A DNA stretch of 64,000 bases. It comes from Candidatus Micrarchaeota archaeon. Lineage in GTDB: Archaea > Micrarchaeota > Micrarchaeia > Micrarchaeales > CABMGC01. Within the stretch, counting starts at the first letter, position 1; every line of letters begins with the position of its first letter. This document shows positions 2,601 to 42,013 of the stretch, piece after piece. The DNA is taken from assembly GCA_028867335.1 (NCBI GenBank), contig JAGWGN010000001.1:22910-86909 (forward strand). Reading direction: 5' to 3'. The notes below the pieces were generated by a model. It ran no database searches. It saw nothing but the letters and a program-made list of their open reading frames with translations, and had not been told where the DNA came from. Made by a program: the position numbers and the translations under genes.

Positions 2601-3749
2601 TTACAATGTAGGGAATGAAGGTATCTGTAATGAATGATAAACAAAAACTTGTAGAATAAATAATATCAAAACCAAAATGATAAATGCTATAGTAATAATA
2701 TTCGTTAGTCTTAATGTGCGAAATTCTCTTCCCATTCTATTAAGTGTAAAACCTTTATTAATATCATAGAGTTTATTTGTATCGAATTCCTTAGTGTGTC
2801 CCTCCCTAAGATTCTGGTAAGTTTCTTTTAATTTATGATAATTATTTAAAAATAATTGGGGTTGTGATAAATTGGTAAGAGCGATTTGAGTTTCATCAAA
2901 AACCTTAGAAAATTTATTAAAATCCTCCCCATTTGCCGACCTAATAAATCTATCAAATGTTGCTAAATTATTAACAAATTCTCTAACTCCAAATTTTTCC
3001 TCGATTGTTAATCCATTCAATTTTAAACTTCTAATAAAAAGTTTAGTGAGCCATAAATCTATCTGTATTTTATTTCTTTTCGGAATAGGGATAAATTCTG
3101 TTTTCTCACGTCTGAAAGTTTTGCCAGCTTCTATGCCTTCAGTAATAAATATGCTAAGCATCTTTTCAGTGGATAATGAATAATAAAGTCTTGAAAAAAG
3201 ATAAAAACCGATAAACATAAAACTAACCGTTCCAGCGAAAAAGAAAATACCATATAAAAGATCTAAAATAAGAAAAATGAGTGGAGTTTGATGATACAAA
3301 TTAGGATAATAAGAATAAATTATGGGTATAATCCACACTATTGCAAATGATAATATGGTAAGGAAAAATAACGGAATGGCTTTATAGTAAGACAGACGCC
3401 AGTTTTCACAATATCTTATTTCATCTTCAACAGGAACTGAATCCCTAAATCTCGGTAAATTTTTATAAATCTGATGAAAATGTTCAAAAGAAAAGTATCT
3501 TTTGAGTTCGATATTATTTTCCTTTTTAAAAAGGAAGTATGCTATTCTCAGTGCTACTATCCCTAAAACAAACATAACTATTAATTCGTAGACAAATCCC
3601 CAAAATATGCCTCCATTTTCTATTATCCCCCCAAGAACAAATATGCCATCTGAAAGATAGATTAAGTAAATTATGAATAAAGATAAAATCGAAATTGCCA
3701 TTATTAGAAGGAAAATTCCGAAAAACCATTCCCAAGTCACATTTTTCAT
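2601..3749 (-). CDS. multi-pass membrane protein of unknown function (passenger gene downstream of the transposase)
   Basis: 382 aa. It has N-terminal and central hydrophobic helices, a ~150-aa soluble charged region and a C-terminal TM helix. It is very AT-rich and starts 23 bp downstream of the transposase stop on the same strand. Confidence 0.6.
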   Translation of the reverse strand: MKNVTWEWFFGIFLLIMAISILSLFIIYLIYLSDGIFVLGGIIENGGIFWGFVYELIVMFVLGIVALRIAYFLFKKENNIELKRYFSFEHFHQIYKNLPRFRDSVPVEDEIRYCENWRLSYYKAIPLFFLTILSFAIVWIIPIIYSYYPNLYHQTPLIFLILDLLYGIFFFAGTVSFMFIGFYLFSRLYYSLSTEKMLSIFITEGIEAGKTFRREKTEFIPIPKRNKIQIDLWLTKLFIRSLKLNGLTIEEKFGVREFVNNLATFDRFIRSANGEDFNKFSKVFDETQIALTNLSQPQLFLNNYHKLKETYQNLREGHTKEFDTNKLYDINKGFTLNRMGREFRTLRLTNIITIAFIILVLILFILQVFVYHSLQIPSFPTL

Positions 3750-3772
3750 GATATTAATATCGTATAAAATAA

Positions 3773-4930
3773 CTAAAAACTTTGGTTTGTCTCATTATTT
3801 ACGACTACAATATTATGGCACAAAACCTTCAGCAACAACTCGTTAATCTGTGCTGTCTTTGTCTTGCTCTTTAGCATATCGCTAAACTTTGCCTTCAACA
3901 TAAAAAACGTGCTTTCCACATTACTTCTCTTGTGGTAATGCGCCATAAAATCCTCTCTATTTAGCATAAAGTAGTGATACATCTTCTTCCACGCAATACT
4001 ACCCACTGAGGACTTGACGGCGTTTCTTTTGAAAGGTATGAAGGGAATCCCTCCAACCTCTCTTACTTTTGTTAGGTTATCACGTGAGCTATACGCCAAA
4101 TCCGCAGATACTTCAGATATGTTGAACCCATTCTCTGAAGTCATCTTAACAAGTGGGATAAATTGCTGGCTATCGCTTGAGTATCCCTCGTTAACTTCTA
4201 CTGCCGTTATGATATTGGTCTTAACGCCAGTCATTATGTGGCATTTAATCCAATTGTGCTTTTTGATTAGGTTATGCTTCATCTTGCAATATTCTGAAAA
4301 CTTTGTAGTTCTAAATCCACTACTATCAATCGCAAAGTCCTTTTCTACTGCTTTCATAGGCAAAGCAGTAATTTGGATCAACTTACTAAGAATAGGTGTT
4401 AGTTCCTCTTTCTGCATAAAGTGTCCAACAGAAGCAAAACAGGGAGTATGCTCAACATATCCCTTTTCCTTTGCCGTCCTCAAATCACTCATAAATCGCC
4501 TTAGCGAGAACTGAGTATAAACCTTCAGAGCAGAGGCAAAAAGCAAGTCTTTATTAGCTATCTTAGGACGACCTTTGCAATTTGGCTGTTCTTCTGCCTC
4601 TTCGCACAGGTCATTAAGCATTTTCATAAAGCTGTCTTTCTCATTGATTTGACACTTATCATAGGTAGCCCAAGTTTGCTGATACGTCATACGTTTGCTC
4701 TGTGTGCCCTGTGGCGTTTCTATCTCTGCCTTAAGCATATACCTTACAGCGTAGGCGTGTTTGCAGGTGGTCTTGTGCAACTGACTATCGGCGCAATCAC
4801 AAACAAACTCTTGATTTACAAGATACTTCTTTCGCCCATCTGTTTGTGAAGGCACAATCCAACCAAACTTGTCTTTCTGTATCTGCAAAGTCTTCGCAAT
4901 TTCATATCCTTTTTCTTGTCTTCGTTCCAT
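3773..4930 (-). CDS. IS4/IS5-superfamily DDE transposase with N-terminal SWIM-type zinc finger
   Basis: The sequence CDCADSQLHKTTCKHAYAV fits a SWIM finger (CxC..CxH). DDE candidates are FAIDSSGF and SADLAYSS. The sequence YHKRSNVESTFFMLK fits the Y-2-R-3-E-6-K (YREK) signature of IS4/IS5 transposases. Confidence 0.85.
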   Translation of the reverse strand: MERRQEKGYEIAKTLQIQKDKFGWIVPSQTDGRKKYLVNQEFVCDCADSQLHKTTCKHAYAVRYMLKAEIETPQGTQSKRMTYQQTWATYDKCQINEKDSFMKMLNDLCEEAEEQPNCKGRPKIANKDLLFASALKVYTQFSLRRFMSDLRTAKEKGYVEHTPCFASVGHFMQKEELTPILSKLIQITALPMKAVEKDFAIDSSGFRTTKFSEYCKMKHNLIKKHNWIKCHIMTGVKTNIITAVEVNEGYSSDSQQFIPLVKMTSENGFNISEVSADLAYSSRDNLTKVREVGGIPFIPFKRNAVKSSVGSIAWKKMYHYFMLNREDFMAHYHKRSNVESTFFMLKAKFSDMLKSKTKTAQINELLLKVLCHNIVVVNNETNQSF

Positions 4931-4948
4931 TTTATCCCTTTATTCATC

Positions 4949-5013
4949 ATACGTATAGTATGTATTATGAATAAGCAGATATATAAAGGTATAGGTATAA
5001 TACGTATAGTATG
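4949..5013. promoter_or_regulatory. two 14-bp direct repeats ATACGTATAGTATG (each containing the palindrome ATACGTAT), 51 bp apart, in the divergent transposase/RHH intergenic region
   Basis: Exact copies lie at 4949-4962 and 5000-5013. The second copy overlaps the RHH start codon. This layout is typical of an operator for a ribbon-helix-helix repressor. Confidence 0.4.
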
Positions 5014-5175
5014 GGAAAGGCAAAGAAGATAGAGAAGGAAACGGCAATACCTAAGACAATAACGCTTATGCCAAAACACCAACGTTTTATCGAGGCAAAG
5101 AGCATTAATCTATCTCGTTTCGTTCAGAAAGCATTAGACGATGAGATAGAAGCGCAGGGTTGGAGAGAGGAATAA
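5011..5175 (+). CDS. small ribbon-helix-helix (CopG/Arc-like) DNA-binding protein
   Basis: My own translation (54 aa, below the track cutoff) is MGKAKKIEKETAIPKTITLMPKHQRFIEAKSINLSRFVQKALDDEIEAQGWREE. It has a beta-strand (TITLMP) followed by two helices. Its stop is 1 nt before the next ATG. Confidence 0.55.
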   Translation: MGKAKKIEKETAIPKTITLMPKHQRFIEAKSINLSRFVQKALDDEIEAQGWREE

Positions 5176-5176
5176 T

Positions 5177-5377
5177 ATGTGCAATAGTTGTGCTACTGGA
5201 AAAATGAAAGTTGGATGGCTATCTACACATTATGAAGAAGGTAAAATTTGCGAATGTAAATGTGCACCTAATCATATAATAAAAAAGATGGAAACTTATT
5301 ACGCAACAGACTCTGAAAAATCTTCGAAAGAAGAAGTTTTAGTATGTCTTAGTTGTAAACACCACTTAAGGATATAA
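5177..5377 (+). CDS. Cys-rich zinc-ribbon-like small protein
   Basis: 66 aa with CNSC...CECKC...CLSCKHH cysteine pairs. It is translationally coupled to the RHH gene. Confidence 0.5.
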   Translation: MCNSCATGKMKVGWLSTHYEEGKICECKCAPNHIIKKMETYYATDSEKSSKEEVLVCLSCKHHLRI

Positions 5378-5517
5378 TTTTACACAACAAGGCGATTAAA
5401 TACACAAAATGAAGTTAATACACAAAGCTCTACGAATCGTTTCCATCGTAGAATCAGGGATATAAGGGATTTATATAATTTAACGGAACTACAAGATAGA
5501 AATTGCACTGTGACTCC

Positions 5518-5982: not shown

Positions 5983-7622
5983 TTTTTATGAACAAGGAAT
6001 GGATTTTCTGGGCAGTGCTTGTGGCGGTGATAGCGATAGGGGCGCTCTACTTCAAGTTCTACAGCACCCAGACGATCTCGATGTTCGTCTCGATAAATGG
6101 CAGCGCGGCGGCTGGCACCACTTACCCGTTCGAGAAGGTCATCCTTCCGGTAACAGTGCAGAACACCGGAAGCGGGGCGATAACCAACCTCGTCTTCGAC
6201 GTTAAGAATAACGGCAACTCGAGCGTCGCATACCAGCTCAGCATACCTGCCGGTAAAAGCGTCACGCTCCAGTACAATTTTACTCCTTCGAAGGCTGGAA
6301 CCTACAACATCTCGGTTGTTGCGGACCCTGCGCAGGTGTACAACATAGCCGACAGGCAGAACTCGATGAACGCTACAGCAGTGGTGATTGCAAACTCCTC
6401 TGCGGGCGCGGCTTACTCGCTCATACCTCGAGGAAACTTCTCCGATTACAGCCAAAACAACTACGGAAGGGGGGGATTCGTAGCGTCAAGCTTCCTCTTC
6501 GGGTCGTATGGCCTTGATGCGTTTGCGCCTGTCGGGAACAGGGACACGTTCGTGACATCGCTGCTCAACATCACCCAGCTTTACATAAGGAATGTCTCTG
6601 TGGCGTCAGCTTCCTACAGGAACGGGACCTCCTCGTACTCGGTTTGGATACAGGGGTACCTGAGCCCGAGCGTCATGGGCGTGGCGGCATCCGGAAGGGG
6701 ATACAAGGTCTCAAACTACACGATAAATGGAACGGCGGTGACTGTCGCCAACATGACAAACACGACGACGCTCTGCAGCTGGTATCAGGGAGGCTGGATA
6801 AAGAGCGTGGTGTATAGCAGCGCAAGCGGCACATGCCTTGGAATATACAAGGGCTCGATAAGGACCCTAAACAAATCGCCAGCGTACGGGAACGCGACAT
6901 ATTTTGCGAAAGTGAACCCCCTAAACAGCACTCTGCTCGGAAATTTCAGCGGCAAGTTCAACGGAAAGATCTTCTACTCTACGCTTCTGCAGAACGGGGC
7001 GACTTTCGTCGCGCCGCAGATCTCAATAAACAGCTCCGAGGATTCCAGGTGCCTGGGTGTTATAAGCAGGCAGAATGGGACAAGCTTCTGCAGCGTCTTT
7101 GTTGTCCCGCTCAACGGCTTCATAACGGGGATTGCTCTGATAAGGACGACAGCTTACATAGGGAACTACAACCTCAGCGTCTACACCCTTGTGAACAACA
7201 GCCGCGTGTTCCAGTCAATACCTACCGCGTTCTCGATAATAAACAAGTTCAACATCAGCGGAACCTCTGCAAGCTTCAGCTCCGGATTTAGCAACACGTG
7301 CCAGTTCAACTTGAGCTTCCCGTGCAGCAACGCTAATTTCTACAACGGGACCCTTGTGCTTCGGGTAACAAACAAGCTAAACCAGAGCCTGCACCTCAAC
7401 TCACTTAGCTGCTACTCAATGGGCAACCCGGTGCCAACAAAGCTAAACCAGAGCCTGCCGGCTCTTGGTTCTATGAACCTCTCAGCAAGCTGCTATAGCC
7501 TAGGGAAGCCGCTTGGTGGGATACCGCTTAACCTGCAGCTAAGCCTGCGCCTAAACTACACGGCCGCCAACGTCACCAAGACAGTTGCAGGGAATGCTAC
7601 GATCAACATCTTCTCTTCTTGA
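5979..7622 (+). CDS. membrane-anchored extracellular protein, CARDB-like N-terminal domain, extremely rich in N-glycosylation sequons
   Basis: It has an N-terminal TM/signal anchor (WIFWAVLVAVIAIGALYF). The segment ITNLVFDVKNNGNSSVAYQLSIPAGKSVTLQYNFTPSKAGTYNISVVADP is CARDB-like. I count about 30 N-x-S/T sequons by eye. Confidence 0.6.
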   Translation: MIFMNKEWIFWAVLVAVIAIGALYFKFYSTQTISMFVSINGSAAAGTTYPFEKVILPVTVQNTGSGAITNLVFDVKNNGNSSVAYQLSIPAGKSVTLQYNFTPSKAGTYNISVVADPAQVYNIADRQNSMNATAVVIANSSAGAAYSLIPRGNFSDYSQNNYGRGGFVASSFLFGSYGLDAFAPVGNRDTFVTSLLNITQLYIRNVSVASASYRNGTSSYSVWIQGYLSPSVMGVAASGRGYKVSNYTINGTAVTVANMTNTTTLCSWYQGGWIKSVVYSSASGTCLGIYKGSIRTLNKSPAYGNATYFAKVNPLNSTLLGNFSGKFNGKIFYSTLLQNGATFVAPQISINSSEDSRCLGVISRQNGTSFCSVFVVPLNGFITGIALIRTTAYIGNYNLSVYTLVNNSRVFQSIPTAFSIINKFNISGTSASFSSGFSNTCQFNLSFPCSNANFYNGTLVLRVTNKLNQSLHLNSLSCYSMGNPVPTKLNQSLPALGSMNLSASCYSLGKPLGGIPLNLQLSLRLNYTAANVTKTVAGNATINIFSS

Positions 7623-10411
7623 CAGTGGTTATTTTGAGCGAAGTATACGAGGCCTTCCTAGAGGAATTTAAGCAGTTCACAAACGTACAGGAGAGGGCGA
7701 TCAGGGTCGTAGAATCTGGAGACAACTGCATCATCACGGCGGCGACAGGAAGCGGAAAGACCGAAGCGGCGCTGCTCCCTGTTCTCAGCAACATCGTGAA
7801 GGACAGCCGGAGGCAGGGGGTCAGCGCACTTTACGTCACCCCCCTGCGGGCGCTAAACAGGGATTTGCTAAAGAGGCTCCGCAAGCTCTGCTCCAAGTTC
7901 GGGGTGCGGGTGGAGGTCAGGCATGGGGACACGACCCAGTCCGAGAGGACAAAGCAGTCCAAGAATCCTCCCGACATACTGATAACCACGCCCGAGACGA
8001 TACAGAGCATCTTCCTCACAGGGAACCTGAGAAACTCGATGCGAAACCTGAAGGCGGTGATAGTCGACGAGCTCCATGAGCTCTACTACAACAAGCGCGG
8101 GGCGCAGTTCTCTGTCGCGCTGGAGCGCCTAGTTGAGCTTGCTGGGGAATTCCAGAGGATAGGGATAAGCGCAACTGTCGGGGATATAGACACCGCAGCC
8201 TATTTTCTGTGCGCGCAGAGGCCGTGCAGCGTGGTCGACGCGCGCGGGAACAAGGAGTTCGTGATCAGCATTGTTATGCCCAGAAACCTTGAGAAGGAAT
8301 ATGCGGAGTTCTCCGAAAAATTCGGCCTTGACAAGCAGGCTCTGGCAAGAATAGAGTACATGGCAGATAGGATAAGGGGGTCTCAGGCGACACTGCTCTT
8401 TGCAAACACAAGGCAGGTGGTGGAGTCGCTTGGCAATAAGCTCATACACTTTGACGGGGTGGCGGATTTTGGGGGGATAGGGGTTCACCACGGATCGCTC
8501 GACAAGGAGGAGCGAATCGGCACGGAGAATGCGTTCAAGGAGGGCAAGATAAGGTCGATAATCGCGACAAGCTCGCTTGAGCTCGGCATCGACATAGGGA
8601 ACATTGACCTTGTGATCCAGTACGGCTCGCCGAGGCAGGTGACAAGGCTTGTGCAGCGGGTGGGAAGGGCGGGCCACAGTGAGAAGAGGGCATCGCATGG
8701 GGACATAGTGGTCGCAAGCGTGATGGACGCGCTGGAATCCGCGGCGATAGTCTCCCTCAACAAAGTGGGGATGCTCGAGAAAAGGGAGATACAGGAGAAT
8801 GCGCTTGACGTTCTTGTCAACCAGCTCAGCTCGGTCGCGCTTGAATACAAGAAACTCGACCCCGAATTCTTCTACAACATGATAAAGCGAAGCTCGTGCT
8901 ACGCAAAACTTGAGAGGAAAAGCTTTGAGGAGGCGCTTGCTTTCGCAAGCGAGCAGCGGCTAATAAGAAACGGAAAAGAGATGACCACGGCGAGCAGGAC
9001 AAGGCGCTATGTGATAGAGAAAATAAGCGTGATACCCGACTCGACGCGGTTTGTGGTGAAAAACATCTCCACAAACAAGATAATCTCGAGCCTTGACGAG
9101 AATTTTGTCTACAACAACATCGAGGAGGGAACGACATTTGTGACAAAGGGCCTGGTCTGGAGGGTTGTGAGCATCGATGAGAAGGTGATCTTTGTGGAGC
9201 CCAGCGTCGAGATTGATGCTGCGATACCGGACTGGGAGGGTGAGGACATCCCTGTATCGCATGCTGTTGCAAGCACCGCGTTTAGCTTCTTTGGAAAGCA
9301 TCGCCTGGAAGATTTAAAGTCGCTCCTGAGCCCCGGCGCCTACTCGGCGGTCCTGGCAACCATCGAGGAACAGGAGAAGCACTTCCCAATAGACGAGGAT
9401 GCGATCCACATCGAGGAAACGGACGAGAGGGCGATAATATACGTGCCGCTCGGAAAGCTTGCAAACGATTTCTTCGGAAAGATAATAAGCGCGCTCGTCT
9501 CTGCAAGCGTCGGGAGGAAGGTTCTGACAAAGTCCACGCCGTACGCAATCATCTTGGAGTATGAGGGCGCAGGGAAGCCCGCAGACATGAAGAAGGTACT
9601 AGAGGCATTCAAGCAGTACAAGCTTGAGAACCTGCTGCAGAGCAGCGAGTTCGTCTCCAGCTTCGACCTGTTCCGCTACAAGTTTGTGCAGAACGCAAAG
9701 CTCTTCGGGGTGATTGAGCGCAAGGCTACGATAACGCGCAGCACGGCGCTGAAGCTGATCGGCTTCTACAGGGATTCGCAGATATTCGAGGAGACAGTGC
9801 GGGACCTCGTGAGGAACTACTTCGACATTGAGAGTGTCAGGGAGCTGCAGAGGAAGCTGATCGACAAGCAGACAAAGGTGTTTGTCTACAAGAGCTTTGG
9901 GTCGGCGATTGCAAATGAGGTACTGCGCTCTGCGTATTTCTACAGGGAGCTGATGAACCCGCTTGCGCCGAGCAGCGAGGAGATAGACCAGTTTGCGCAG
10001 GGGCTGATGAGCAAGAGCGCGGAGCTCATCTGCACCTACTGCGGCTTTAGGTTCAAGCGAAAGCTCTCCGAGATAAAGGAGCATGAGAGGATAAGGTGCG
10101 TCTCGTGCAGGAGCCCGATGGTTGCGGTGTACGAGGAGGGATACGAACAGGGGATAGAGAGGCGAAAGAACAGCGAACGCTTTATGAAGAAGAGCGAGGT
10201 TGCGCTCTACGCGGAGGCGATAGCCAACGCAAGCCTTGTCGAGGCGTACGGGCTTCGCGCCCTGATTGCACTTGCGACCTACGGGGTGGGAAACAAGACG
10301 GCGGCCAGGATACTCAAATGGCTCAGGAAGGACACGAAGCTTTTCCTGATAGACCTGATAAACGCGCAGAAGCAGTTCATAAAGAACAAGAAGTACTGGG
10401 CGGACAGATAG
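7619..10411 (+). CDS. lhr: Lhr-like large superfamily-2 (DEAD/DEAH) helicase
   Basis: Walker A is TAATGSGKTEAA, motif II is VDELHE, and motif VI is QRVGRAGH. There is a long C-terminal Lhr-type extension ending in a zinc ribbon (CTYCG...CVSCRS). Total length is 930 aa. Confidence 0.85.
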   Translation: MTVVILSEVYEAFLEEFKQFTNVQERAIRVVESGDNCIITAATGSGKTEAALLPVLSNIVKDSRRQGVSALYVTPLRALNRDLLKRLRKLCSKFGVRVEVRHGDTTQSERTKQSKNPPDILITTPETIQSIFLTGNLRNSMRNLKAVIVDELHELYYNKRGAQFSVALERLVELAGEFQRIGISATVGDIDTAAYFLCAQRPCSVVDARGNKEFVISIVMPRNLEKEYAEFSEKFGLDKQALARIEYMADRIRGSQATLLFANTRQVVESLGNKLIHFDGVADFGGIGVHHGSLDKEERIGTENAFKEGKIRSIIATSSLELGIDIGNIDLVIQYGSPRQVTRLVQRVGRAGHSEKRASHGDIVVASVMDALESAAIVSLNKVGMLEKREIQENALDVLVNQLSSVALEYKKLDPEFFYNMIKRSSCYAKLERKSFEEALAFASEQRLIRNGKEMTTASRTRRYVIEKISVIPDSTRFVVKNISTNKIISSLDENFVYNNIEEGTTFVTKGLVWRVVSIDEKVIFVEPSVEIDAAIPDWEGEDIPVSHAVASTAFSFFGKHRLEDLKSLLSPGAYSAVLATIEEQEKHFPIDEDAIHIEETDERAIIYVPLGKLANDFFGKIISALVSASVGRKVLTKSTPYAIILEYEGAGKPADMKKVLEAFKQYKLENLLQSSEFVSSFDLFRYKFVQNAKLFGVIERKATITRSTALKLIGFYRDSQIFEETVRDLVRNYFDIESVRELQRKLIDKQTKVFVYKSFGSAIANEVLRSAYFYRELMNPLAPSSEEIDQFAQGLMSKSAELICTYCGFRFKRKLSEIKEHERIRCVSCRSPMVAVYEEGYEQGIERRKNSERFMKKSEVALYAEAIANASLVEAYGLRALIALATYGVGNKTAARILKWLRKDTKLFLIDLINAQKQFIKNKKYWADR

Positions 10412-10479: not shown

Positions 10480-10902
10480 ATGGCCATGGAGACTGTTTCG
10501 CACAAGCACAGAGTTCTTGTAGCAAAGCTCGGGCTTGACGGCCACGACCGGGGAGCGCTGGTGCTCTGCAAGGCGTTTAGGGACGCGGGGATGGAGGTCA
10601 TCTATTCCGGATTGTTTGCGACTCCGAAGCGGATTGCGCAGATAGCCGAGGATGAGGATGTGGACATTGTGGCCCTGAGCCTGCTAAACAATGCACACAT
10701 GACACTGTTTCCGAAAGTTGTTAATGAGCTTAGGGAAAAGAAGATTGATGGGATCTTGGTTCTTGGAGGGGGAACAATCCCGGAGGAGGACAAACCGAAA
10801 CTAGAGAAAGCGGGGGTGAAGGGTAACTTCGGCTCGGGCACACCCATTCCAGAGATACTACGATTTATTGAGAAGGAGATTGCTCTGGTGAAGAGGGAGT
10901 AG
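10480..10902 (+). CDS. methylmalonyl-CoA mutase small (B12-binding) subunit
   Basis: [16 protein letters not shown] contains the DxHxxG cobalamin-binding motif, followed by a Rossmann-like remainder. TATA AAGTTTTTATATC at ~10441 places a leaderless start at ATG 10480. The track ORF from 10096 is an upstream extension overlapping the helicase. Confidence 0.8.
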
Positions 10903-13321
10903 GCTGAGAAGGGGGAGCCTCGGAGGGCTCGCTTATCACCCTTGCGTCCACGACCTTGGCGCCTGGCTCGAGCTTCATGAGCCTCACTCCTGAGGCAGAT
11001 CTTCCTGTTATCCTAATCTCGTCAACCTCGAACTTTATCGTGACTCCCTTTGAGCTTATCATTATCACCTGGGACTTTCCGTGCACAAACATTGCCTTCG
11101 CCACGGCCCCGGTCTTCTGGTTTGTCTTTATGTTGATTATTCCGCTTCCGCTCCTGTTCTGGTCCCTATACTTGCCGATCTCGGTGAGCTTGCCGTATCC
11201 GTTTTCGGTTACGCTCAGCAAAAATCCTGTCTCCTCCACTGGGATTATGTTTTCTGAGACGTCGCCGGGGCCGAGCTTTATTCCCCTAACCCCCATTGCG
11301 GCCCTTCCGAGGAACCTGATGCTGGCCTCCTCGAACTTTATCGCCTTGCCGAGCTTTGTGGTTATCGCCATGTACTTTTCCTTCGTGTAGATCTGGACGT
11401 CAGCAATGGTGTCGCTCTGGTTTAGGCTTATCGCCCTCACCCCGGTGACCCTTGGGTGGGCAAAGAGCTTTGCCATCGTCTTCTTTATCAGCCCCTTTGC
11501 GGTGAGGAAGACAATCCTTGAATTCTCAAAGTCCTTTATGCTAAGTATCGTAACTATCTTCTCGTCCTTTAGGTTGAGCAGATTGACTATGGCCTTTCCT
11601 TCTGCGTATCTGCTTGCCTCAGGAACTCTATACGCCTTGAGCCAATATACACGCCCCTTATCGGATATGCACAGCAGGTAGTCCTTGGTCTTGCATGAGA
11701 CTATCTGCTTGACAAAGTCCCCCTCCTTTAGGTTAATTGCAATAACTCCCCTGCCTCCCCTTGCCTGCTCCTTGTATGTGGCGAGCGGCATCCTCTTCAC
11801 GTAGCCGGTGTTTGTGAATATCACGGAGACCCTTTCGTCAGATATTAGGTCCTCGTCCTTTATCTCAAGTCCCTCGTCATGCTGGAGCAGCTTTGTCCTT
11901 CTCGGCCTCCCGTACTTCTCCTTTATCTCGGCGGTCTCGGCCCTTATTATCTCGTCGACCTTCTTCGGATCGGCGAGGATCTCGTTGTAGTATTTTATCT
12001 TTCCCTCGAGTTCCACTTTCTCGTCGGAGAGCGAGGTGGACTCCAACGCCGTAAGCTTGCTGAGCCTCATCTCCAGGATCGCATTTGCCTGCTTCTCGGA
12101 AAGCGAGTAGTTCTTCATGATGAGGTGCCTTGCCGCTGAGAGCTCCTTGCTCTGCTTTATGTCCTTTACTATCTGGTCTATGTTGCTTATCGCAATCACA
12201 AGGCCCTCGACAATGTGGTGCCTCTCTGTCGCGACGTTCAGCTCGAAGGCACTCCTCTTTCGGACCATCTCCCTTCTGTGTTCGATGAATGTTGTGAGCA
12301 GCTGCAGCACGTTGAAGTTCTTTAGCCTCTTGCCGACTATCGCGAGGCTTATTATCGGGAATGTGGTCTCCATCTGGGTGTGTTTGTAGAGCGAGTTCAG
12401 CACCACCTCTGGCTGAACGTCCTCCCTAAGCTCGATTACGACCCTTATGTCCTTGTCGCTCTCGTCGCGCAGGTCAGTTATGCCCACTATCTTCTTCTCC
12501 TTGACCAGGGAGGCGATGTTTTGGATGAGCGCCGACTTGTTTACGCTGTATGGAAGCTCGTGGATTATGATCTGGTTCTCCTTGTTGTCAATCTCCACCT
12601 TTGCCTTTATAGTGACCTGCCCCTTTCCGTATCTGTATCCGTTGTATGAGTTCTCGGACATGAGTGCGATTCCTCCGGTCGGGAAATCTGGACCCTTGAT
12701 TATGCCGAGGATGTCCTGCGGCGTTGCCTGCTCGTGGCCCAGCACATACTCGACCGCATCGCATACCTCGATCAAGTTGTGCGGAGGGATGCTGGTCGAC
12801 ACGCCGACCGCAATTCCGTAGGTTCCGTTGACCAGAAGGTTCGGGACCTTTGCGGGAAGCACGTCGGGCTCCTGCTCGGTGTTGTCGAAGTTCGGAATCA
12901 TCGGGACCGTTCCCTTCTCAAGGTCCGCGATCATCTCCTCGGCCAGCTTTGTGAGGCGCACCTCGGTGTATCTCATTGCTGCTGGAGGGTCTCCGTCGAC
13001 CGAACCGAAGTTACCCTGGCCCTCGACAAACGTGTGGTTTAGCGAGAAATCCTGGGCCATCCTCACAAGGGATTCGTAGACGGCAGAGTCTCCGTGAGGG
13101 TGGAACTTACCGATCACCTCTCCGACAATCCTTGCACTCTTCTTTGTGGGCTGGTTGTGCACGTTGTTGATGTTGTACATTGCGTACAGTATCCTTCTCT
13201 GCACCGGCTTGAGGCCGTCCCTGGCGTCAGGTATCGCTCGCCCTATGATTACGCTCATCGCGTAGTCAATGTAGCTTGACTGCAACTCGTCTTCCAGTTG
13301 GCGTGATTCTATTCTGCCCAT
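10865..13321 (-). CDS. gyrA: DNA gyrase subunit A
   Basis: The sequence [14 protein letters not shown]...AMRYTE carries the active-site Tyr region. C-terminal beta-pinwheel repeats are present. Length is 818 aa, with a Pro/Ser-rich acidic tail. Confidence 0.95.
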
Positions 13322-13329
13322 TTAATCAT

Positions 13330-15273
13330 CTAGATGTCCAGGAACTTTACCTCTCCGGAGTGCTCCTCGAGGAACTTCTTTCTCTTTGCAACGTCCACTC
13401 CCATGAGTATCGTGAAGAGCTCGTTTGCCTTTGCCGCATCATCCACCTTTATCTGCTTGAGGACCCTGTTCTCAGGGTCCATCGTTGTCTCCCAGAGCTG
13501 CTCGGGGTTCATCTCTCCAAGACCCTTGTACCTCTGCACCGCTGCCTTGCCCTCGTATCCCCTGAGTTTTGTTTCAAGCTCCTCGTCGCTGTAGCAATAT
13601 GCCGACTCCCTGCCTTTTGTGATCTTGTAGAGAGGCGGCTGGGCGATATAGACATATCCGTTGTCTATTACCGGCTTTAGGTACCTGTAGAGGAATGTGA
13701 GTATGAGCGTCCTGATGTGGCTTCCGTCAACGTCCGCGTCGCTCATCAGTATGATCTTCTTGTACCTTATCTTGTCGATGTTTAGCGTCTCCTTTATTCC
13801 CGTGCCGAATGCCGCGACCATGGTGTGGATTTCCGCATTGTCGAATATCCTCTCCACGCTCGCCTTCTCCACGTTGAGAATCTTTCCCTTAAGGGGAAGT
13901 ATCGCCTGGAACTGCTTGTCTCTGCCCTGCTTGCTGGATCCCCCTGCGCTCTCACCCTCTACGATGAAAATCTCCGCCTTTGCAGGGTCGCCCTCTATGC
14001 AGTCCGCAAGCTTTCCTGGAAGAGCCGAGCTCTCGAAGATGCTCCTCTTTCGGACCATCTCTCTTGCCTTCTTTGCGCTCTCCCTTGCGGCAGCGGCGTT
14101 TATCACCTTTTCGGCGATGGTCTTCGCCTCTGAAGGATGCTCTTCTAGGTACCTTGAGAGCTGGGCGTAGACGACGTTCTCCACGATTCCCTTTATCTGC
14201 ATGCTCCCCAGCTTCTCCTTTGTCTGCCCCTCGAACTCGGGGTTCGCCATGAGCACGTTGATGACCACAGTGAGCCCCTCCCGCACGTCGTCTCCTATTA
14301 TCTTCACATCGCGCTTCTCTGCGATGCGGGACTTGGTCATGTAGTTTATTATCGCCCTTGAAAATGCAGACCTGAACCCGATCACGTGGGTTCCTCCCTC
14401 CATCGTCCTGATGTTGTTCACGAAGGCCTCGATTTTCTCGTCGTAGCCCTTGTCGTACTGTATGGCGATCTCAATTGTGTTTAGCTCGACCTGCTTCTTG
14501 AAATGGATTATGGGTGTTATCGCGTCGGTTCCCTTGTTTAGGTACGCGATGAAATCTGGAAGGCCGTTTTGCGAGAAGTACTCCTGCTCGTCCTTTGGGC
14601 TCACCCTTTCGTCCACGAATATTATCCTCACCCCGGGGTTGAGGAAAGTCGTGTACCTTAGCCTATGCTTTAGTATTTCAGCGTCAAAATTCGGAGTGAC
14701 GAAAATCTCTGGGTCCGGCTTGAACTTTATCGTTGTTCCGCGCCCTGTGGTCTCCCCTACCTGCTCAAGTGAGGATGTGGGGATCCCCTTGCTGAAACTC
14801 ATCTTGTACTCCTTGCCGTTTTTCTTTACGGTAATCTCCGTGAATTCGGAAAGCGAGTTTATTACCGTGAGTCCGACGCCGTGCAGCCCTCCCGCAGTCT
14901 TGTAAACGTCGTTGTTGAACTTTCCTCCCGAGTGAAGCGAGGTCATTATCACTTCAAGCGCAGGCTTGTTGTACTTCGGCATTATGTCAATTGGTATCCC
15001 CCTGCCATCGTCGGAGAGCTCTGCGACATCACCGGTCCCGTTTGTAGAAAGAGTGATCTTGATCGTCTTGCAGTAGCCCGCCATGGCCTCGTCGACCGCG
15101 TTGTCGAGCGCCTCGTAGAGAAGATGGAGCACTCCGCCAGGGCCTGTTGACCCGATGTACATTGCGGGCCTTTTTCTTATTCCAAGAGGCCCTTCAAGTA
15201 CCGTGATTTTCGATGCGTTATACTCATCTTCCACTCCTACCATGAAAATCAAACCGGTTCCCTCAAATTTCAT
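13330..15273 (-). CDS. gyrB: DNA gyrase subunit B
   Basis: VLEGPLGIRKRPAMYIG is present, followed by GHKL ATPase, TOPRIM (EGDSAGG-like IVEGESAGGS) and PLKGKILNVE motifs. The TATA position (ccttataaacc, ~15285-15295) suggests the real start is the ATG at 15243. Confidence 0.95.
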   Translation of the reverse strand: MKFEGTGLIFMVGVEDEYNASKITVLEGPLGIRKRPAMYIGSTGPGGVLHLLYEALDNAVDEAMAGYCKTIKITLSTNGTGDVAELSDDGRGIPIDIMPKYNKPALEVIMTSLHSGGKFNNDVYKTAGGLHGVGLTVINSLSEFTEITVKKNGKEYKMSFSKGIPTSSLEQVGETTGRGTTIKFKPDPEIFVTPNFDAEILKHRLRYTTFLNPGVRIIFVDERVSPKDEQEYFSQNGLPDFIAYLNKGTDAITPIIHFKKQVELNTIEIAIQYDKGYDEKIEAFVNNIRTMEGGTHVIGFRSAFSRAIINYMTKSRIAEKRDVKIIGDDVREGLTVVINVLMANPEFEGQTKEKLGSMQIKGIVENVVYAQLSRYLEEHPSEAKTIAEKVINAAAARESAKKAREMVRKRSIFESSALPGKLADCIEGDPAKAEIFIVEGESAGGSSKQGRDKQFQAILPLKGKILNVEKASVERIFDNAEIHTMVAAFGTGIKETLNIDKIRYKKIILMSDADVDGSHIRTLILTFLYRYLKPVIDNGYVYIAQPPLYKITKGRESAYCYSDEELETKLRGYEGKAAVQRYKGLGEMNPEQLWETTMDPENRVLKQIKVDDAAKANELFTILMGVDVAKRKKFLEEHSGEVKFLDI

Positions 15274-17195: not shown

Positions 17196-17512
17196 TCTTA
17201 TACGGCACACATTACAAAACCACAAACATTCCTGCGTATTCTGCGAAAAATGTGGTTGTTTAAATATGACTGAAGCGTTAATCTAGTATGGATAAGATGG
17301 CTTCATTCAAGGAAAATGAAGGACTAAACCTCGCAGTTAGGAGAGCATACTTTGATCACAAGTTCAGAAGCGAAAAGAGTTTTGGGCTTGGAAGCGGCGT
17401 AGGTGTCGTGATAAGGTCAACATTTGAGAGCATGAAAGGCAGATTTAGATAAGATATAAATATGATTGATGCGTAATATTAGAGAAATACTATTTCTCTA
17501 CCGGTGATTTTC

Positions 17513-18262
17513 ATGAAAAACAACAAAAAAGCGACCAAAAAAGCTGCTTACAAGAATGCTTCAGCGAAGAAATCTGCCGCAAGGCATGTTTCCTCAAAGA
17601 AGGTCATTAGAAAGGCTGCAAAGGCGCAGAGAAAACAGTCGAAGTCGATGAAGAAGGTAAAGTCCCTGCCGAAGAGGGTCGCAAAGATGCAGACGAAGGC
17701 GGTGGCTGCACCGAAGGAGAGGAGGGCGAAGGAGGTCATTGACTTTAGGGCGGCGAACTTTGCGGACGAGGCGCTGATCAAGACGGTGATCGGAGAGCCC
17801 CACTTCACAAACCACGTTTCAAGGAGCGTCGGCAAGAGGGCAGGCGAGATAATCCAGCTGCTTGCAACGCCTCAGACTGATGATGCGATAGCGGAGAAGC
17901 TCGACATCAAGATAAACGAGGTGCGAAGGATGCTAAACACCCTAAACACCTACGGGGTCGCGCGCTACAACGTCAACAAGGACAGCAAGGGCTGGCTCAC
18001 ATTCAAGTGGTACATAGACGCAGGTAAGATAACCGAGATGAAGGACGACCTTGTCATGAAGAACGGCGAGGGCGCATACAAGCTCCCTGAGGGGTGCAAC
18101 GACTTCTTCATCTGCGGCAAGTGCTACAGCGAGGAGAAGACGATCTTCCCGTTCGAGAGCGCATTTGAGATGGGCTTCAAGCATGAGTGCGGAGGCGCAA
18201 TGAAGCAGGTCAACAAGATGGAGGTAGAGCAGCTAGTGATGCAGGAGGGAAAGATCCTGTAG
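17513..18262 (+). CDS. tfe: transcription factor E (TFE-alpha, TFIIE-alpha homologue) with Lys/Ala-rich N-terminal extension
   Basis: The winged-helix core is GEIIQLLATPQTDDAIAEKLDIKINEVRRMLNTLNTYGVARY. The zinc-ribbon region is FICGKCYS...HECGG. It is preceded by ~80 aa of K/A/R-rich sequence. Confidence 0.8.
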   Translation: MKNNKKATKKAAYKNASAKKSAARHVSSKKVIRKAAKAQRKQSKSMKKVKSLPKRVAKMQTKAVAAPKERRAKEVIDFRAANFADEALIKTVIGEPHFTNHVSRSVGKRAGEIIQLLATPQTDDAIAEKLDIKINEVRRMLNTLNTYGVARYNVNKDSKGWLTFKWYIDAGKITEMKDDLVMKNGEGAYKLPEGCNDFFICGKCYSEEKTIFPFESAFEMGFKHECGGAMKQVNKMEVEQLVMQEGKIL

Positions 18263-18423: not shown

Positions 18424-18474
18424 CTGCGAAGGTAAGGAAGATATTATAAGCTATTTACGTCAATACTATTTCAT

Positions 18475-18549
18475 AGCGAGGTAGGGTAGCCTGGAGTGCC
18501 CGCCGGGCTCATAACCCGGAGATCGATGGTCCAAATCCATCCCTCGCTA
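18475..18549 (+). tRNA. tRNA-Met (CAT), initiator-like
   Basis: There is an A1:U72 pair (AGCGAGG/CCTCGCT). Three G-C pairs close the anticodon stem (CCGGG-CTCATAA-CCCGG). The T loop reads TCCAAAT rather than the usual TTCAAAT. Confidence 0.8.
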
Positions 18550-18587
18550 TTATTTTCAAAACCGCTAGCTTCGCTCTCGCCAATGTA

Positions 18588-18704
18588 GGGGAGAGGGGGG
18601 CACAGTTCCACTAATGGTGTTGGTTATATATAATATACAAATAATAAATCATCATTAGTTCCATTGTTTTGAATTTTGCTTTTTCAAATATTAGTGGAAC
18701 TCTG
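18588..18704. repeat. 15-bp inverted repeat (CACAGTTCCACTAAT / ATTAGTGGAACTCTG) flanking a 74-bp AT-rich spacer, preceded by a G-string
   Basis: The left arm is 18601-18615 and the right arm is 18690-18704 (14/15 complementary). GGGGAGAGGGGGG lies at 18588-18600. The spacer is 16/74 G+C by hand count. A partial third copy, AGTTCCA, lies at 18657-18663. Confidence 0.6.
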
Positions 18705-18747
18705 CACTGGCAGTATGAAAGTGATTTAAGTTTGTTTTGGTGTATTT

Positions 18748-19215
18748 GTGGAAATCTCTGTAGATCAGCTTTTCAACATGATCCAGGCGGAAAAGAAAAC
18801 AGGGGAGGTAATTCCCCTTCCTAGGGACTTCTACAGAAACGCGATCCAAAAGCTCAGCAAGCTTGAGCAGATCCAGGAGGACCAGCAGCACTCTGGGAAC
18901 TTCAAGAAACTGCTTTCGCAGGTGAGGGAGAGGCGGGTACAGAAGCTATTAATATATTTGGCGTACAATAAACAATTACCTAGTCTGGTTCCTGAAGAGG
19001 AGGAAGAACTCTACAGAGGCATCAAGGCGCTCCTCGACAAAAAGGAGGCAGGTGTGACAAAGGTCCGCAAGATAAGGATAATCGCGGAGACACCGGAGCT
19101 TGTGATGCCAAACGGCGGCAAGAGCGGCCCGTACAAGGAGCACCAGGTAATAGAGACGACGGACAACTACGAGGCGGAATTCCTACTCAACAACAAGCTT
19201 GGCGAGCAAATCTAA
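18748..19215 (+). CDS. GINS subunit (Gins51/Sld5-like)
   Basis: The N-terminus ...QAEKKTGEVIPLPRDFYRNAIQKL...ERRVQKLLIYLAY resembles the A-domain of archaeal GINS. The start is GTG. Not verified by search. Confidence 0.5.
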   Translation: MEISVDQLFNMIQAEKKTGEVIPLPRDFYRNAIQKLSKLEQIQEDQQHSGNFKKLLSQVRERRVQKLLIYLAYNKQLPSLVPEEEEELYRGIKALLDKKEAGVTKVRKIRIIAETPELVMPNGGKSGPYKEHQVIETTDNYEAEFLLNNKLGEQI

Positions 19216-19224
19216 AGTGATGAA

Positions 19225-19518
19225 ATGAAGATAACAAAAGAACTTATGGCATACTGCCCCTACTGCAACAAGCACACGGAGCACACGGTTACGAAGATAC
19301 AAGCTTCAAAGCCGGCAAACCCAAGCAGGGGAATGAGCGTGAGCAACAGGAGGCACAACCGAAAGATCAGGGGATTCGTAGGAAAGGTCAAGGCCAAGAC
19401 CCCGGTTAAGAAGCTTGGAAAGAAGCAGAAGGCGATTTTGCAGTGCAAGGAGTGCAAGAAGTCGATAGAGCGGGTCTTCGGAAACAAGACCAAGAAGAAG
19501 CTTGAGATCAAGCGCTGA
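19225..19518 (+). CDS. rpl44e: ribosomal protein eL42 (L44e)
   Basis: CPYCNKHTEH...CKECKKS forms a zinc ribbon in a basic protein of typical length. It sits in the conserved position upstream of aIF2-alpha. Confidence 0.85.
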   Translation: MKITKELMAYCPYCNKHTEHTVTKIQASKPANPSRGMSVSNRRHNRKIRGFVGKVKAKTPVKKLGKKQKAILQCKECKKSIERVFGNKTKKKLEIKR

Positions 19519-19523
19519 ATTAC

Positions 19524-20288
19524 ATGATAATACCAAAGCCAATGCCTGAAGTTGGCGAACTTGTTCTGATAAGGGTAAAGAAGGTGATGCCCTTCGGCGC
19601 ATACTGCGAGCTCACCGAGTATAGTAACCACGACGCGTACATCCCGATAAAGGAGGTCGCATCGGGGTGGATCAAGAACATCCACGAGTTCGTAAAGGAG
19701 GGCCACAGGGGCGTCGGGAAGATAGTCTACATAGACAAGGAGAAGAAGGCAATCGATATCTCGCTAAAGAAGGTCACAAAGAAGGAGGAGAAGGACAAGG
19801 TCAACGACGCAAACCTGGAGAAGAGGGCCGAGAACCTCTTCACGCAGGCGGTCGCGGCTGCAGGGCTCAAGGAGAAGACCCAGGAACTCCTATCCGAAAT
19901 CACAAAGAAGTACCAGACCTACACGGAGATAATCAACACGTTTGTCGACGGCAAGGATGCGTTTGAGGGGATGAAGGTAAACCCAAAGTTCACCCTTGCG
20001 ATCAAGGAGATAGTCGCAAAGAACATCAAGCCGAAGATCTACCAGGTGGCGTACATCGCCGAGGTCACGGTCTACGACACAAAGAACGGGATCTCACTGA
20101 TAAAGAAGGCGTTCAAGGAGGTCGAGAAGCTCGGAGTATCAATCAACTATCTTGGCGCGCCAAGATATAAACTTCTCTCGGAGGATTCAAGCTATCCGAA
20201 GGCAGAGGAGAGGATAAAGAACGCGAATACGATACTCGAGAAGATCCTCGTGGACAGCACAATCAACCTCAAGAAGGACAAGGTATAG
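19524..20288 (+). CDS. eif2a: translation initiation factor aIF2 alpha subunit
   Basis: The N-terminal S1 domain is PEVGELVLIRVKKVMPFGAYCELTEY..DAYIPIKEVASGWIKNI. Length is 254 aa. Confidence 0.85.
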   Translation: MIIPKPMPEVGELVLIRVKKVMPFGAYCELTEYSNHDAYIPIKEVASGWIKNIHEFVKEGHRGVGKIVYIDKEKKAIDISLKKVTKKEEKDKVNDANLEKRAENLFTQAVAAAGLKEKTQELLSEITKKYQTYTEIINTFVDGKDAFEGMKVNPKFTLAIKEIVAKNIKPKIYQVAYIAEVTVYDTKNGISLIKKAFKEVEKLGVSINYLGAPRYKLLSEDSSYPKAEERIKNANTILEKILVDSTINLKKDKV

Positions 20289-20292: not shown

Positions 20293-21060
20293 ATGCACAA
20301 CACCAAGATCTACTGCAACAAGTCGGTGAAGCCGAGGAACCCGATACTTCTAGTCGGACTTCCGGGGATCGGAAACGTCGGAAGCCTCGTGGGCGAGCAC
20401 GTTAAGAACGAGCTCAAGGCAAACAAGTTCGCAACGCTATATTCCCCACATTTCCCCCACCAGGTGCTGATGCTAAAGTCAGGAGGCATAAGGCTGGTGA
20501 GCAACAGGTTCTACCACTGGAAGAACCCTTCCAAGGACAAGAAGGCAAGAGACCTCATCATCCTTGTCGGCGATTTCCAGGCGCTCTCCTCAGAAGGCCA
20601 GTACGAGATAAACGAGAAGATAGTCGAGTTCTACAAGAAGATGGGGGGCAAGATGATCTATACCGTCGGCGGCTACAACACGAGCAACCAGTACATAAAG
20701 GAGCCGAGGGTTTTTGCCGTCACAACGGACAAGGCAACAATCCCTGCGCTAAAGAGCAAGGGGGTGATATTCGGCCAGGCATCCGGAATGATCTGGGGAT
20801 CTGCAGGATTGCTGCTCGCTTTTGCAAAGAAGCACAAGCTGACCGGAACCTGCATCATGGGCGAAACAGGCATGCTTGAGGTCGACGCGCACGCCGCAAA
20901 GGCGGTTTTGGACATCCTCGTCAAGGAGCTGGGCCTAAAGATCGACCTAGACAACATGGAGAAGATAAGCCAGGAGACCCAGAAGATGATGAAGGCGATG
21001 GAGGAGGCAATGCAAAAGGAGAGCCAGGGGAACAAGGAGAACTTCACATACATCAGATAA
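20293..21060 (+). CDS. PAC2-family proteasome assembly chaperone (COG1938)
   Basis: The N-terminus PILLVGLPGIGNVGSLVGEH is characteristic of the family. It lies at the conserved position after the L44e/aIF2-alpha cluster. Confidence 0.7.
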   Translation: MHNTKIYCNKSVKPRNPILLVGLPGIGNVGSLVGEHVKNELKANKFATLYSPHFPHQVLMLKSGGIRLVSNRFYHWKNPSKDKKARDLIILVGDFQALSSEGQYEINEKIVEFYKKMGGKMIYTVGGYNTSNQYIKEPRVFAVTTDKATIPALKSKGVIFGQASGMIWGSAGLLLAFAKKHKLTGTCIMGETGMLEVDAHAAKAVLDILVKELGLKIDLDNMEKISQETQKMMKAMEEAMQKESQGNKENFTYIR

Positions 21061-22402: not shown

Positions 22403-22427
22403 GTTATCCTTCCATTTTTATGAAATA

Positions 22428-22455
22428 TTCCACTAAAAACATACGTTTTTAAATC
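22428..22455 (+). promoter_or_regulatory. TTCCACTAAA motif + 8 nt + TATA (TTTTTAAATC)
   Basis: This is one of four same-architecture sites (see findings). The TATA is near-palindromic and could also serve the divergent DUF92 gene. Confidence 0.35.
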
Positions 22456-22706
22456 TTAAATCCGCCAATATACTTACGGGTTCTCTACTGTAGGAAGGGT
22501 TAAACTGGTCGCCTTGCCAGTCCGTGCAAACGGATTGGCCTCTTCCTAATCTTACACCTTCTACTGTCATCTCCGATCCTAAATTTTCACTATCATCATT
22601 TATCTCTACTTATATATTCTTTACGCTCGGAAATGGGCCGTTTTTCGAAGGGTTAATATTCCTATTTCACCCTATATTACATACATCATTTTCTATAGTG
22701 GCTGCA

Positions 22707-29887: not shown

Positions 29888-29915
29888 TTCCACTAATCCG
29901 AAAAACTTTATAAAT
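29888..29915 (+). promoter_or_regulatory. TTCCACTAAT motif + 9 nt + TATA (TTTATAAAT) upstream of the PRC-barrel gene
   Basis: The exact 10-mer lies at 29888-29897 and the TATA at 29907-29915. The ATG at 29946 is ~30 nt downstream, consistent with a leaderless geometry. Confidence 0.45.
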
Positions 29916-29945: not shown

Positions 29946-30227
29946 ATGAAAATATCTGACATATATCACATGGATATCTACAGTGATTCCGGACAATATC
30001 TTGGCGACGTCCAGGATGTAATAGTCGATCTGGAAAGAGGAGAACTCAGCAGGTTGCTGACAGTACCATGGAAGAATGCGAAGGGAGACGTCAAGGTTGT
30101 CCTTAGGCAGAAGAGCATTCTCTACAAGAACGTGAAGAACGTTGGAGACGTGGTTTTGGTTTCGTCATTGCCAGGGGCAAAGGCGGATGATGTCTCAAGG
30201 GAAGAAGCAACGGATCTTTCAAGATAA
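29946..30227 (+). CDS. PRC-barrel domain protein
   Basis: The sequence DIYSDSGQYLGDVQDVIVDLERGELSRLL is typical of PRC-barrel domains. Confidence 0.6.
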   Translation: MKISDIYHMDIYSDSGQYLGDVQDVIVDLERGELSRLLTVPWKNAKGDVKVVLRQKSILYKNVKNVGDVVLVSSLPGAKADDVSREEATDLSR

Positions 30228-41983: not shown

Positions 41984-42013
41984 TTCCACTATTAGCGATA
42001 TGCTTATAAATAT
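41984..42013 (+). promoter_or_regulatory. TTCCACTATT motif + 10 nt + TATA (TTATAAATAT) upstream of the ribosomal protein operon
   Basis: The motif lies at 41984-41993 and the TATA at 42004-42013. The rpl3 ATG is at 42091. Confidence 0.4.

Follow-up and report, generated by a model that had tools for sequence, protein, structure and literature searches.

Inverted ORB-like boxes around an AT-rich spacer between tRNA-iMet and GINS form a candidate replication origin core in Candidatus Micrarchaeota

In Sulfolobus islandicus, the functional core of the replication origin oriC1 is a 130-bp segment, ORB3-DUE-ORB2, composed of two origin recognition boxes (ORBs) and a duplex-unwinding element (DUE) (PMC12141716). 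The two ORBs are inverted, each is bound by one Orc1-1 monomer with defined polarity, and both are required (PMC12141716). An 11-bp motif midway in the DUE, called ucm, is essential and is bound by the abundant protein UBP, also at more than 300 other intergenic sites (PMC12141716). For the ORB, the published consensus is CTTCCAGTGGAAACGAAAGGGGT in archaea and GTTCCAGTGGAAATGG-AGGGGT in Methanomassiliicoccales (PMC4153887), and ORB1/2 of Pyrococcus furiosus read CCCCC...TTTCCACTGGA (PMC1904270). Many archaeal origins have more than two boxes (PMC1904270), and adjacency of the origin to orc1/cdc6 is usual in archaea, not universal (PMC4010727). Our searches of the literature brought up no account of a replication origin in Micrarchaeota or other DPANN archaea. 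Here we describe a paired element between the initiator tRNA gene (tRNA-iMet) and the GINS gene in 64,000 nt of DNA from a Candidatus Micrarchaeota archaeon (contig JAGWGN010000001.1, positions 22,910 to 86,909), referred to below as the window. The first-pass annotation of the window had seen an ORB/DUE-like origin architecture here. That view is supported by the conservation of the module, its 19-nt ORB-like box, the conservation of the arms as a consensus, and an orc1 gene 10-24 kb away in related genomes. We give an even chance to the element being the core of the Candidatus Micrarchaeota chromosomal replication origin.

The element is built from two inverted arms, CACAGTTCCACTAAT at 18601-18615 and ATTAGTGGAACTCTG at 18690-18704, and its parts are as follows.

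18588-18600, plus strand: G-run GGGGAGAGGGGGG beside the left arm, at the place of the C-run (ACCCC) of most relatives and of opposite polarity
18597-18615, plus strand: left box in the 19-nt register, GGGGCACAGTTCCACTAAT, with a position weight matrix (PWM) score of 22.5 (all arms 12-30)
18616-18689, no strand: AT-rich spacer, candidate duplex-unwinding element, which also contains TATA-like runs
18624-18637, plus strand: TATA-like run TTATATATAATATA, 8 nt past the left core, without a GAAA-type B recognition element (BRE)
18646-18653 and 18657-18664, plus strand: central block AAATCATC and partial third copy of the core AGTTCCAT, conserved in the clade by alignment
18690-18708, minus strand: right box, reading ATTAGTGGAACTCTGCACT on the plus strand, PWM score 18.0, with its core ATTAGTGGAA at 18690-18699
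18743-18757, minus strand: degenerate extra copy TATTTGTGGAAATCT with 3 mismatches, overlapping the GINS start codon

The 15-bp inverted repeat of the first-pass annotation is present, and a repeat finder extended it to 16 nt (18600-18615 and 18690-18705), with 15/16 positions (94%) complementary and 74 nt between the arms. The G+C content of the spacer, 16/74 as had been counted (21.6%), belongs to the lowest 0.26% among the 74-nt windows of the 64 kb, and its duplex stability is the lowest in the 64 kb when two low-GC islands are left aside. No other inverted repeat in the 64 kb combines a match of at least 15/16 with a loop of 20-120 nt. None arose in 20 first-order Markov simulations, and our own analytic estimate of the chance expectation is about 0.07 per window; chance is an unlikely source of the repeat. 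The left core is the 10-mer TTCCACTAAT at 18606-18615, no G/C run of any kind accompanies the right arm of the window, and the partial third copy AGTTCCA that had been noticed inside the spacer lies at 18657-18663. At the position of the degenerate copy (18743-18757), relatives have ATGGAAAT or ATGGAAGA, and this copy is probably a by-product of coding Met-Glu-Ile. A search of the window for the canonical dyad ORB was discarded, with 29 matches against 29.7 expected.

Conservation of the inverted repeat and its AT-rich spacer in relatives had been named by the first-pass annotation as a check on its proposal. We performed a GINS-alignment scan with one genome per species, which yielded 26 loci, 24 of them of the Micrarchaeota type (23 distinct, as L022 duplicates L021). 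Among these loci, GINS is between 74% and 28% identical to that of the window. In 24/24 of them, tRNA-iMet, box, AT-rich spacer, inverted box and GINS follow one another in this order, and a metagenome scan added about 14 further contigs with the same module. Two inverted boxes flank an AT-rich candidate unwinding element in the window and in all relatives. From the TTCC of the left core to the GGAA of the right core the distance is 90-95 nt in 17/24 loci and 96-110 nt in the others, and the module measures about 111 bp from outer edge to outer edge. The distances to the neighbors are variable, 9-56 nt from the tRNA to the left core and 25-137 nt from the right core to the GINS start (GGAA to ATG). 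Because the internal length is constrained while the flanking distances vary, the element is a self-contained module and no appendage of either flanking gene. Spacer G+C is 0.16-0.28 across the relatives and is independent of genome composition; among the metagenome loci, a spacer of 0.26 G+C lies in a genome of 0.59 G+C. Most matches of the metagenome scan, made with an 18-mer, were chance matches in unrelated DNA, with an AT-rich inner flank in only about 35 of 121.

The spacer itself carries clade-specific motifs. In the window's clade these are the central AATAATAAATCATC and TTCCAT, and the TATA-like run is kept in the window, L002, L004, L005, L010 and L018. Another clade (L008, L011-L013, L015-L017, L020) conserves the palindrome TATAACTnAGTTATA roughly at the spacer center, and contigs L085, L107, L120 and L127 have GTAACTATAGTTAC at a similar mid-spacer place.

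The arms, 15/16 complementary in the window, might be thought to pair together, in RNA (a processing stem or part of a small structured RNA) or in DNA (a cruciform or hairpin), and changes on both sides are slightly more common than in a shuffled control (32 cells vs 20). However, complementarity of the arms within a locus is 79.2% vs 76.2% with arms shuffled between the 24 loci, and variable arm positions are unpaired in 4-12 of these loci, that is, in up to half of them. This within-locus pairing, barely above the shuffled value, indicates that the arms conserve a box consensus, as expected for protein-binding sites, and not a stem. In addition, flips between G-run and C-run break the complementarity in several loci, and a structured RNA would not be expected to have an interior of clade-specific sequence at about 20% G+C. 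No Rfam family matches the region: the scan of 16-24 kb returned tRNAs and one sub-threshold miRNA match only (mir-890, 20.9 bits against a threshold of 56, E=0.9). We regard pairing of the arms as highly improbable. An even smaller probability, close to nil, is left for a miniature transposable element bounded by terminal inverted repeats or for the remnant of an integration site beside the tRNA gene. Such an element would account for the inverted termini, the unit of about 110 bp and the place beside a tRNA gene, and a tyrosine-recombinase gene stands beside a box in L087 and L072. Against this, the module is present in one copy per locus, always at the orthologous position and phylum-wide; neither the 64 kb nor about 470 kb of sequence from related loci holds a further copy, and no target-site duplication was seen in the flanks. 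The window has no integrase nearby, and its sole transposase is 14 kb off in a separate low-GC island.

A single 19-nt box, ACCCYACAnTTCCACTAWT, describes both arms; its reverse complement is AWTAGTGGAAnTGTGGGGT. Compared with the archaeal ORB consensus, the Micrarchaeota box matches AGTGGAA and GGGGT exactly, 12/12 positions in two blocks; its linker is 4 nt vs 5-6 in the ORB, and the left half of the dyad is absent. The first-pass annotation had matched TTCCAC(T) to one half of the ORB dyad; the second half is missing. P. furiosus ORB1/2 have the C-run and TTCCACT in common with the Micrarchaeota box. Across all Micrarchaeota loci, orc1 loci included, the strict pattern AGTGGAA-N4-GGGGT occurs only in the arms. 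A C-run of at least 3 is found in 27/48 arms and a G-run of at least 3 in 7/48. The G+C content at positions -9 to -5 is 0.67-0.69 in the arms vs 0.29 in 20 single copies of the core at promoters (p=5e-9), and neither the G:C tract nor the 19-nt form was found at these single copies.

The window departs from this consensus in the polarity of the tract. On the strand with TTCCAC, the canonical ORB and most relatives have a C-run (CCCC-N4-TTCCAC), whereas the left arm of the window has a G-run there, and the same G-rich replacement is present in L002. Thus the G-string of the first-pass annotation exists as a run at 18588-18600, but it is not the canonical ORB G-string, having the opposite polarity; the canonical tract is lost on both arms in the window and in its closest relative L002, with core and spacing retained. 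Swaps between G-run and C-run from locus to locus would be tolerated by a composition-dependent contact. A Shine-Dalgarno role for the G-run was considered and rejected as a poor general fit, the GGAA-to-ATG distance ranging over 25-137 nt.

Locating orc1/cdc6 had been put forward as another check. The gene is on the contig of the module in 5/5 related genomes, 9.7-24.4 kb off, at these distances.

JBOGSA010000002.1: 22.2 kb
CAWHXT010000005.1: 24.4 kb
JAWDMB010000001.1: 22.0 kb
Ga0326728_10000021: 21.3 kb
L009: 9.7 kb

The orc1 gene is tightly flanked by other genes, with no boxes nearby and no sizeable intergenic region, and in one genome, where a continuous 32.7 kb reaches from orc1 to the module, the 10-mer is found nowhere but in the two arms. 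From 5441 onward the window is collinear with L002, and it has nothing in common with the orc1 locus of the L002 genome. By this synteny, the orc1 gene of the window's lineage is expected just beyond the left end of the window.

What the sequences show is the anatomy of the module, how it is conserved, its agreement with the ORB consensus and an orc1 gene nearby; Orc1 binding, unwinding and initiation are inferred. In the mechanism we propose, each of the two inverted 19-bp ORB-like boxes would bind one Orc1/Cdc6 monomer, with the G:C tracts pointing outward. The boxes would bracket the 74-bp AT-rich unwinding element, whose near-fixed length would allow the bound initiators to load MCM between them, in analogy to what has been proposed for ORB3-DUE-ORB2 of Sulfolobus oriC1. 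In the lineage of the window, the boxes would have shrunk to the TTCCACTAAT core plus CACA, with the G:C tract lost or flipped. The spacer probably also contains the promoter of the GINS operon, so the ORB-DUE-ORB origin core probably overlaps the GINS promoter, and replication and expression may be coupled.

Several observations weigh against an origin. The window arms keep only the core and CACA and have no G:C tract in canonical polarity, and there are two boxes only. Among the open reading frames (ORFs) of at least 150 aa in the window, none has an Orc1/Cdc6-type Walker A motif, in agreement with the earlier remark that the window lacks orc1/cdc6, and in the genomes where both are found, the module is linked to orc1/cdc6 but not adjacent to it. 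No clear switch in gene orientation or skew was seen in local tests around the module. The genes of the left flank are about 50% plus-strand in most loci and 83-100% in four, with no bias away from the element; the GC skew in the window follows the gene strand, and the GC3 and AT3 skews, which differ between left and right in 24 loci, are confounded by the same orthologous gene families recurring on each side. Several lineages have the GINS start codon a few to about 20 nt beyond the right box (GGAA-to-ATG 25-38 nt), which leaves only the spacer as the place of their GINS promoter; whatever else the spacer does, it is likely to act as a promoter. Full boxes are not confined to the module: virus-like contigs have them between divergent genes, and some stand right before the start codons of other genes. 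Finally, the 10-mer occurs singly, in a fixed orientation and 1-10 nt before BRE/TATA, at conserved promoters of unrelated genes, three of them in the window.

22428-22437, plus strand: single core TTCCACTAAA, 7 nt before GTTTTTAAAT, in the promoter of a small RNA upstream of radA
29888-29897, plus strand: single core TTCCACTAAT, followed by ccGAAAAac and TTTATAAAT, upstream of the PRC-barrel gene 29946-30227
41984-41993, plus strand: single core TTCCACTATT, 10 nt before TTATAAAT, upstream of the ribosomal protein L3 operon 42082-43065

These single sites have a common layout of core, 1-3 nt, GAAA-type BRE, TATA, and about 25 nt to the start of the RNA or ORF, and the layout recurs at orthologous positions in up to 13 lineages. 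The small-RNA promoter arrangement is found in at least 13 lineages, and a single copy with the same geometry precedes a 92-aa ORF in L011 and L013. L003 and L005 keep the PRC-barrel site ahead of the orthologous gene; the left neighbor there is co-directional, and therefore the site must serve the downstream gene. The idea that single sites belong to divergent genes on their left was rejected for the PRC-barrel and small-RNA sites, several lineages having no divergent neighbor.

The first-pass annotation had held a transcription-factor operator to be an equally live explanation, and the single copies at a fixed distance upstream of BRE/TATA uphold this alternative. The element would then be a purely transcriptional control module and not an origin, a reading that we take seriously as a possibility, short of an even chance. 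TTCCACTAWT would be bound by a dedicated regulator, or by Orc1/Cdc6 as a regulator only, which activates from upstream of BRE/TATA. With centers about 84 or 94 bp apart and on one face of the helix, two sites would bracket the promoter of the GINS operon and activate or repress it, possibly by a short loop. In addition to the single sites in fixed promoter geometry and the GINS promoters forced into the spacer where the start codon closely trails the right box, this reading draws on the left arm of the window's clade, which has TTATATATAAT 8 nt on; the geometry from the left core to the TATA-like run is the same as at the single-copy promoter sites. The center-to-center distances cluster at 83-84 and 94-95 bp, a hint of helical phasing. 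However, the left arm is conserved equally to the right arm, yet there is no gene to control on its outer side, and the module lies at varying distances from the GINS start. Only the paired arms have the G:C-tract extension, which the single promoter sites lack, and the arm linkers in turn have no GAAA BRE like that of the single sites. The 12/12 ORB-consensus positions in two blocks are hard to call chance, and an operator needs no 74 bp at 16-28% G+C in a genome of 59% G+C.

Boxes in other contexts can be accommodated by both the origin and the regulator readings. Paired boxes are present in three small virus-like metagenome contigs (L058 3950-4125, L085 about 450-600, L159 about 730-880), where they surround an AT-rich, repeat-filled spacer; the cores of L058 are doubled. 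The position of these pairs between divergent genes, with an RHH-like gene starting 4-5 nt past the G-run in L058 and L085, counts in favor of transcriptional control. L058 encodes a small packaging-ATPase-like protein (phrog_2666, E=4e-12). In L087 (2424-3250 of Ga0066333_11, an archaeal contig of 1.24 Mb), inverted full boxes 790 bp apart flank a PRC-barrel gene, so that the association of the box with this gene, which also speaks for transcriptional control, is seen again in a distant lineage; the pair adjoins the tyrosine-recombinase gene mentioned above. Box occurrences in L098, L112, L148 and L166 are grouped with that of L087. A conserved 203-aa ORF without a Pfam match (N-terminus ..GYFIQYKFI..) has single full boxes directly before it, and in this family the palindrome ATGTATA...TATACAT lies about 27 nt inside the box. 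Paired 10-mers in viral contigs were taken as chance: the 17 matches are coding-like, with spacer G+C near the locus value and no C-run.

The origin and promoter functions could also be combined, in that the element would be both the origin and the GINS-operon promoter and Orc1/Cdc6 would be a global regulator in these reduced genomes; we consider this unlikely, but with a chance worth stating. Full inverted boxes at the fixed 74-bp spacing would load the helicase, whereas core-only half-sites would let the initiator drive the ribosomal-protein operon, the PRC-barrel (division-type) gene and the small RNA. Viruses or plasmids of these archaea would carry paired boxes to capture the host initiator. 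If true, replication initiation would be directly coupled to the expression of translation and division genes.

The small RNA served by the first of the single sites (about 70 nt, at about 22478-22552, plus strand, with its promoter at 22428-22454) recurs in at least 16 loci of Micrarchaeota. One of its hairpins, CTGGTCGCCTTGCCAG, is invariant, and another shows compensatory changes from lineage to lineage; the stem that closes the RNA, AGGAAGGG/CCTCTTCC, precedes a T-run. Rfam gave no match at E up to 1. A second TTCCAT stands 16 nt before the TTCCAC core (cTTCCAtttttatgaaataTTCCAC) at 22412-22433 of the window and at the orthologous sites of L002-L006 and L015; this TTCCAT lies near the start codon of DUF92, a divergent gene, and is possibly another half-site.

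The neighbors of the module named by the first-pass annotation, tRNA-iMet and GINS, were both recovered, the former by ARAGORN and Rfam and the latter by a weak Pfam match and named homologues. The genes around the module are as follows.

10865-13321, minus strand: gyrA (Pfam)
13330-15273, minus strand: gyrB (Pfam)
17504-18262, plus strand: TFE-alpha (Pfam)
18474-18550, plus strand: tRNA-Met(CAT), left neighbor of the module (ARAGORN; Rfam tRNA, 58.6 bits)
18748-19215, plus strand: GINS-family gene, right neighbor of the module (Pfam Sld5, weak, E=3.6e-4; homologues named GINS at source)
19225-19518, plus strand: L44e (Pfam)
19524-20288, plus strand: aIF2-alpha (Pfam)
20293-21060, plus strand: PAC2 (Pfam)

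The tRNA-Met(CAT) has an A1:U72 pair and three G:C pairs in the anticodon stem, which we take to be initiator features. The GINS product is identical to the KGH65_00280 protein of a Candidatus Micrarchaeota metagenome-assembled genome (MAG), encoded on a 181-kb contig. The GINS-L44E-aIF2alpha cluster is a described archaeal arrangement (PMC2643942), and the replication genes around the element, GINS and gyrA/gyrB, were counted for the origin reading. In three loci, the tRNA-iMet gene has insertions that look like introns, one after the anticodon in L003 (about 9760-9850), two in L006 (about 9740-9850) and one region of about 100 nt in L111 (14370-14540); the copy of the window is uninterrupted. 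In L021, a 321-aa P-loop ATPase (8755-9720) lies directly upstream of tRNA-iMet and the module, replacing TFE-alpha, and by its Walker A sequence FAGPAGVGKTT alone it looks like a replication factor C small subunit; this gene too was counted for the origin reading.

Further to the left, a low-GC island at about 2000-5500 (0.30-0.40 vs about 0.50) holds a DDE transposase (3773-4930), an unannotated 382-aa ORF (2601-3749) and small ORFs, RHH-like from 5013 and zinc-ribbon-like from 5178. The collinear part of L002 lacks this island, which is probably an insertion. Its large AT-rich intergenic stretch at 4931-5502 was considered as an alternative origin and rejected, as it contains the small ORFs of this transposase island and has no boxes. 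An Lhr-type large helicase gene (7619-10411; DEAD, Helicase_C, DEAD_assoc, WH_Lhr) has no counterpart in L002 between the flanks that are collinear with the window (L002 2608 = window 7622; L002 2698 = window 10929).

If the module is an origin, a simple rule (tRNA-iMet, paired AWTAGTGGAAnTGTGGGGT boxes 74 bp apart, GINS) would locate oriC in fragmentary MAGs across the whole phylum and would permit coverage-based estimates of growth rate for these uncultured symbionts. It would also be an origin separated from orc1 and built with a minimal, half-dyad ORB, and its near-fixed spacer would make the positioning of MCM by two archaeal initiators directly testable. The core that it has in common with promoters suggests that the initiator might also be a transcription regulator, an idea that can be tested. 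We consider the case noteworthy because no DPANN origin was found described, the origin would be detached from orc1, and the box core is common to conserved promoters.

The module recalls known systems to different degrees. Bacterial repression loops use paired operators about 90-115 bp apart (lac O1-O3, gal OE-OI); one protein on two helically phased sites that bracket a promoter would be alike, although these loops are bacterial and involve another protein family. We know of no archaeal repression loop with this geometry. Orc1-2 of Sulfolobus, a paralogue within the Orc1/Cdc6 family, acts as a transcription regulator in the DNA-damage response. An initiator-family protein on short motifs upstream of promoters would be alike here, although the motif of Orc1-2 differs. 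The origins of Pyrococcus and Methanomassiliicoccales (PMC1904270, PMC4153887) have TTCCACT/AGTGGAA with a C- or G-run in inverted pairs, as in Micrarchaeota, and isolated ORB or mini-ORB copies occur elsewhere in these genomes, as does the Micrarchaeota core. These origins differ in having the full dyad TTCCAnTGGAA, often many mini-ORBs, and a place beside orc1/cdc6, and the isolated copies of Pyrococcus are neither conserved nor bound in vivo, whereas the single copies of Micrarchaeota are conserved at orthologous promoters. In Sulfolobus oriC1, whose function was mapped by experiment while the Micrarchaeota module is known from its sequence, the ORBs are 36 bp long with a dyad core and lie beside orc1-1, compared with 19-bp half-dyad boxes 10-24 kb from orc1 in Micrarchaeota, and the linker to the G-run has 6 nt in Sulfolobus and 4 nt in Micrarchaeota. 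The two have in common a layout of inverted boxes around an AT-rich element, about 110-130 bp in total, with a conserved motif near the middle, and the mid-spacer palindrome of one Micrarchaeota clade recalls ucm in its position. In both, a motif of the element also occurs at many other intergenic sites, ucm in Sulfolobus and the 10-mer core in Micrarchaeota.

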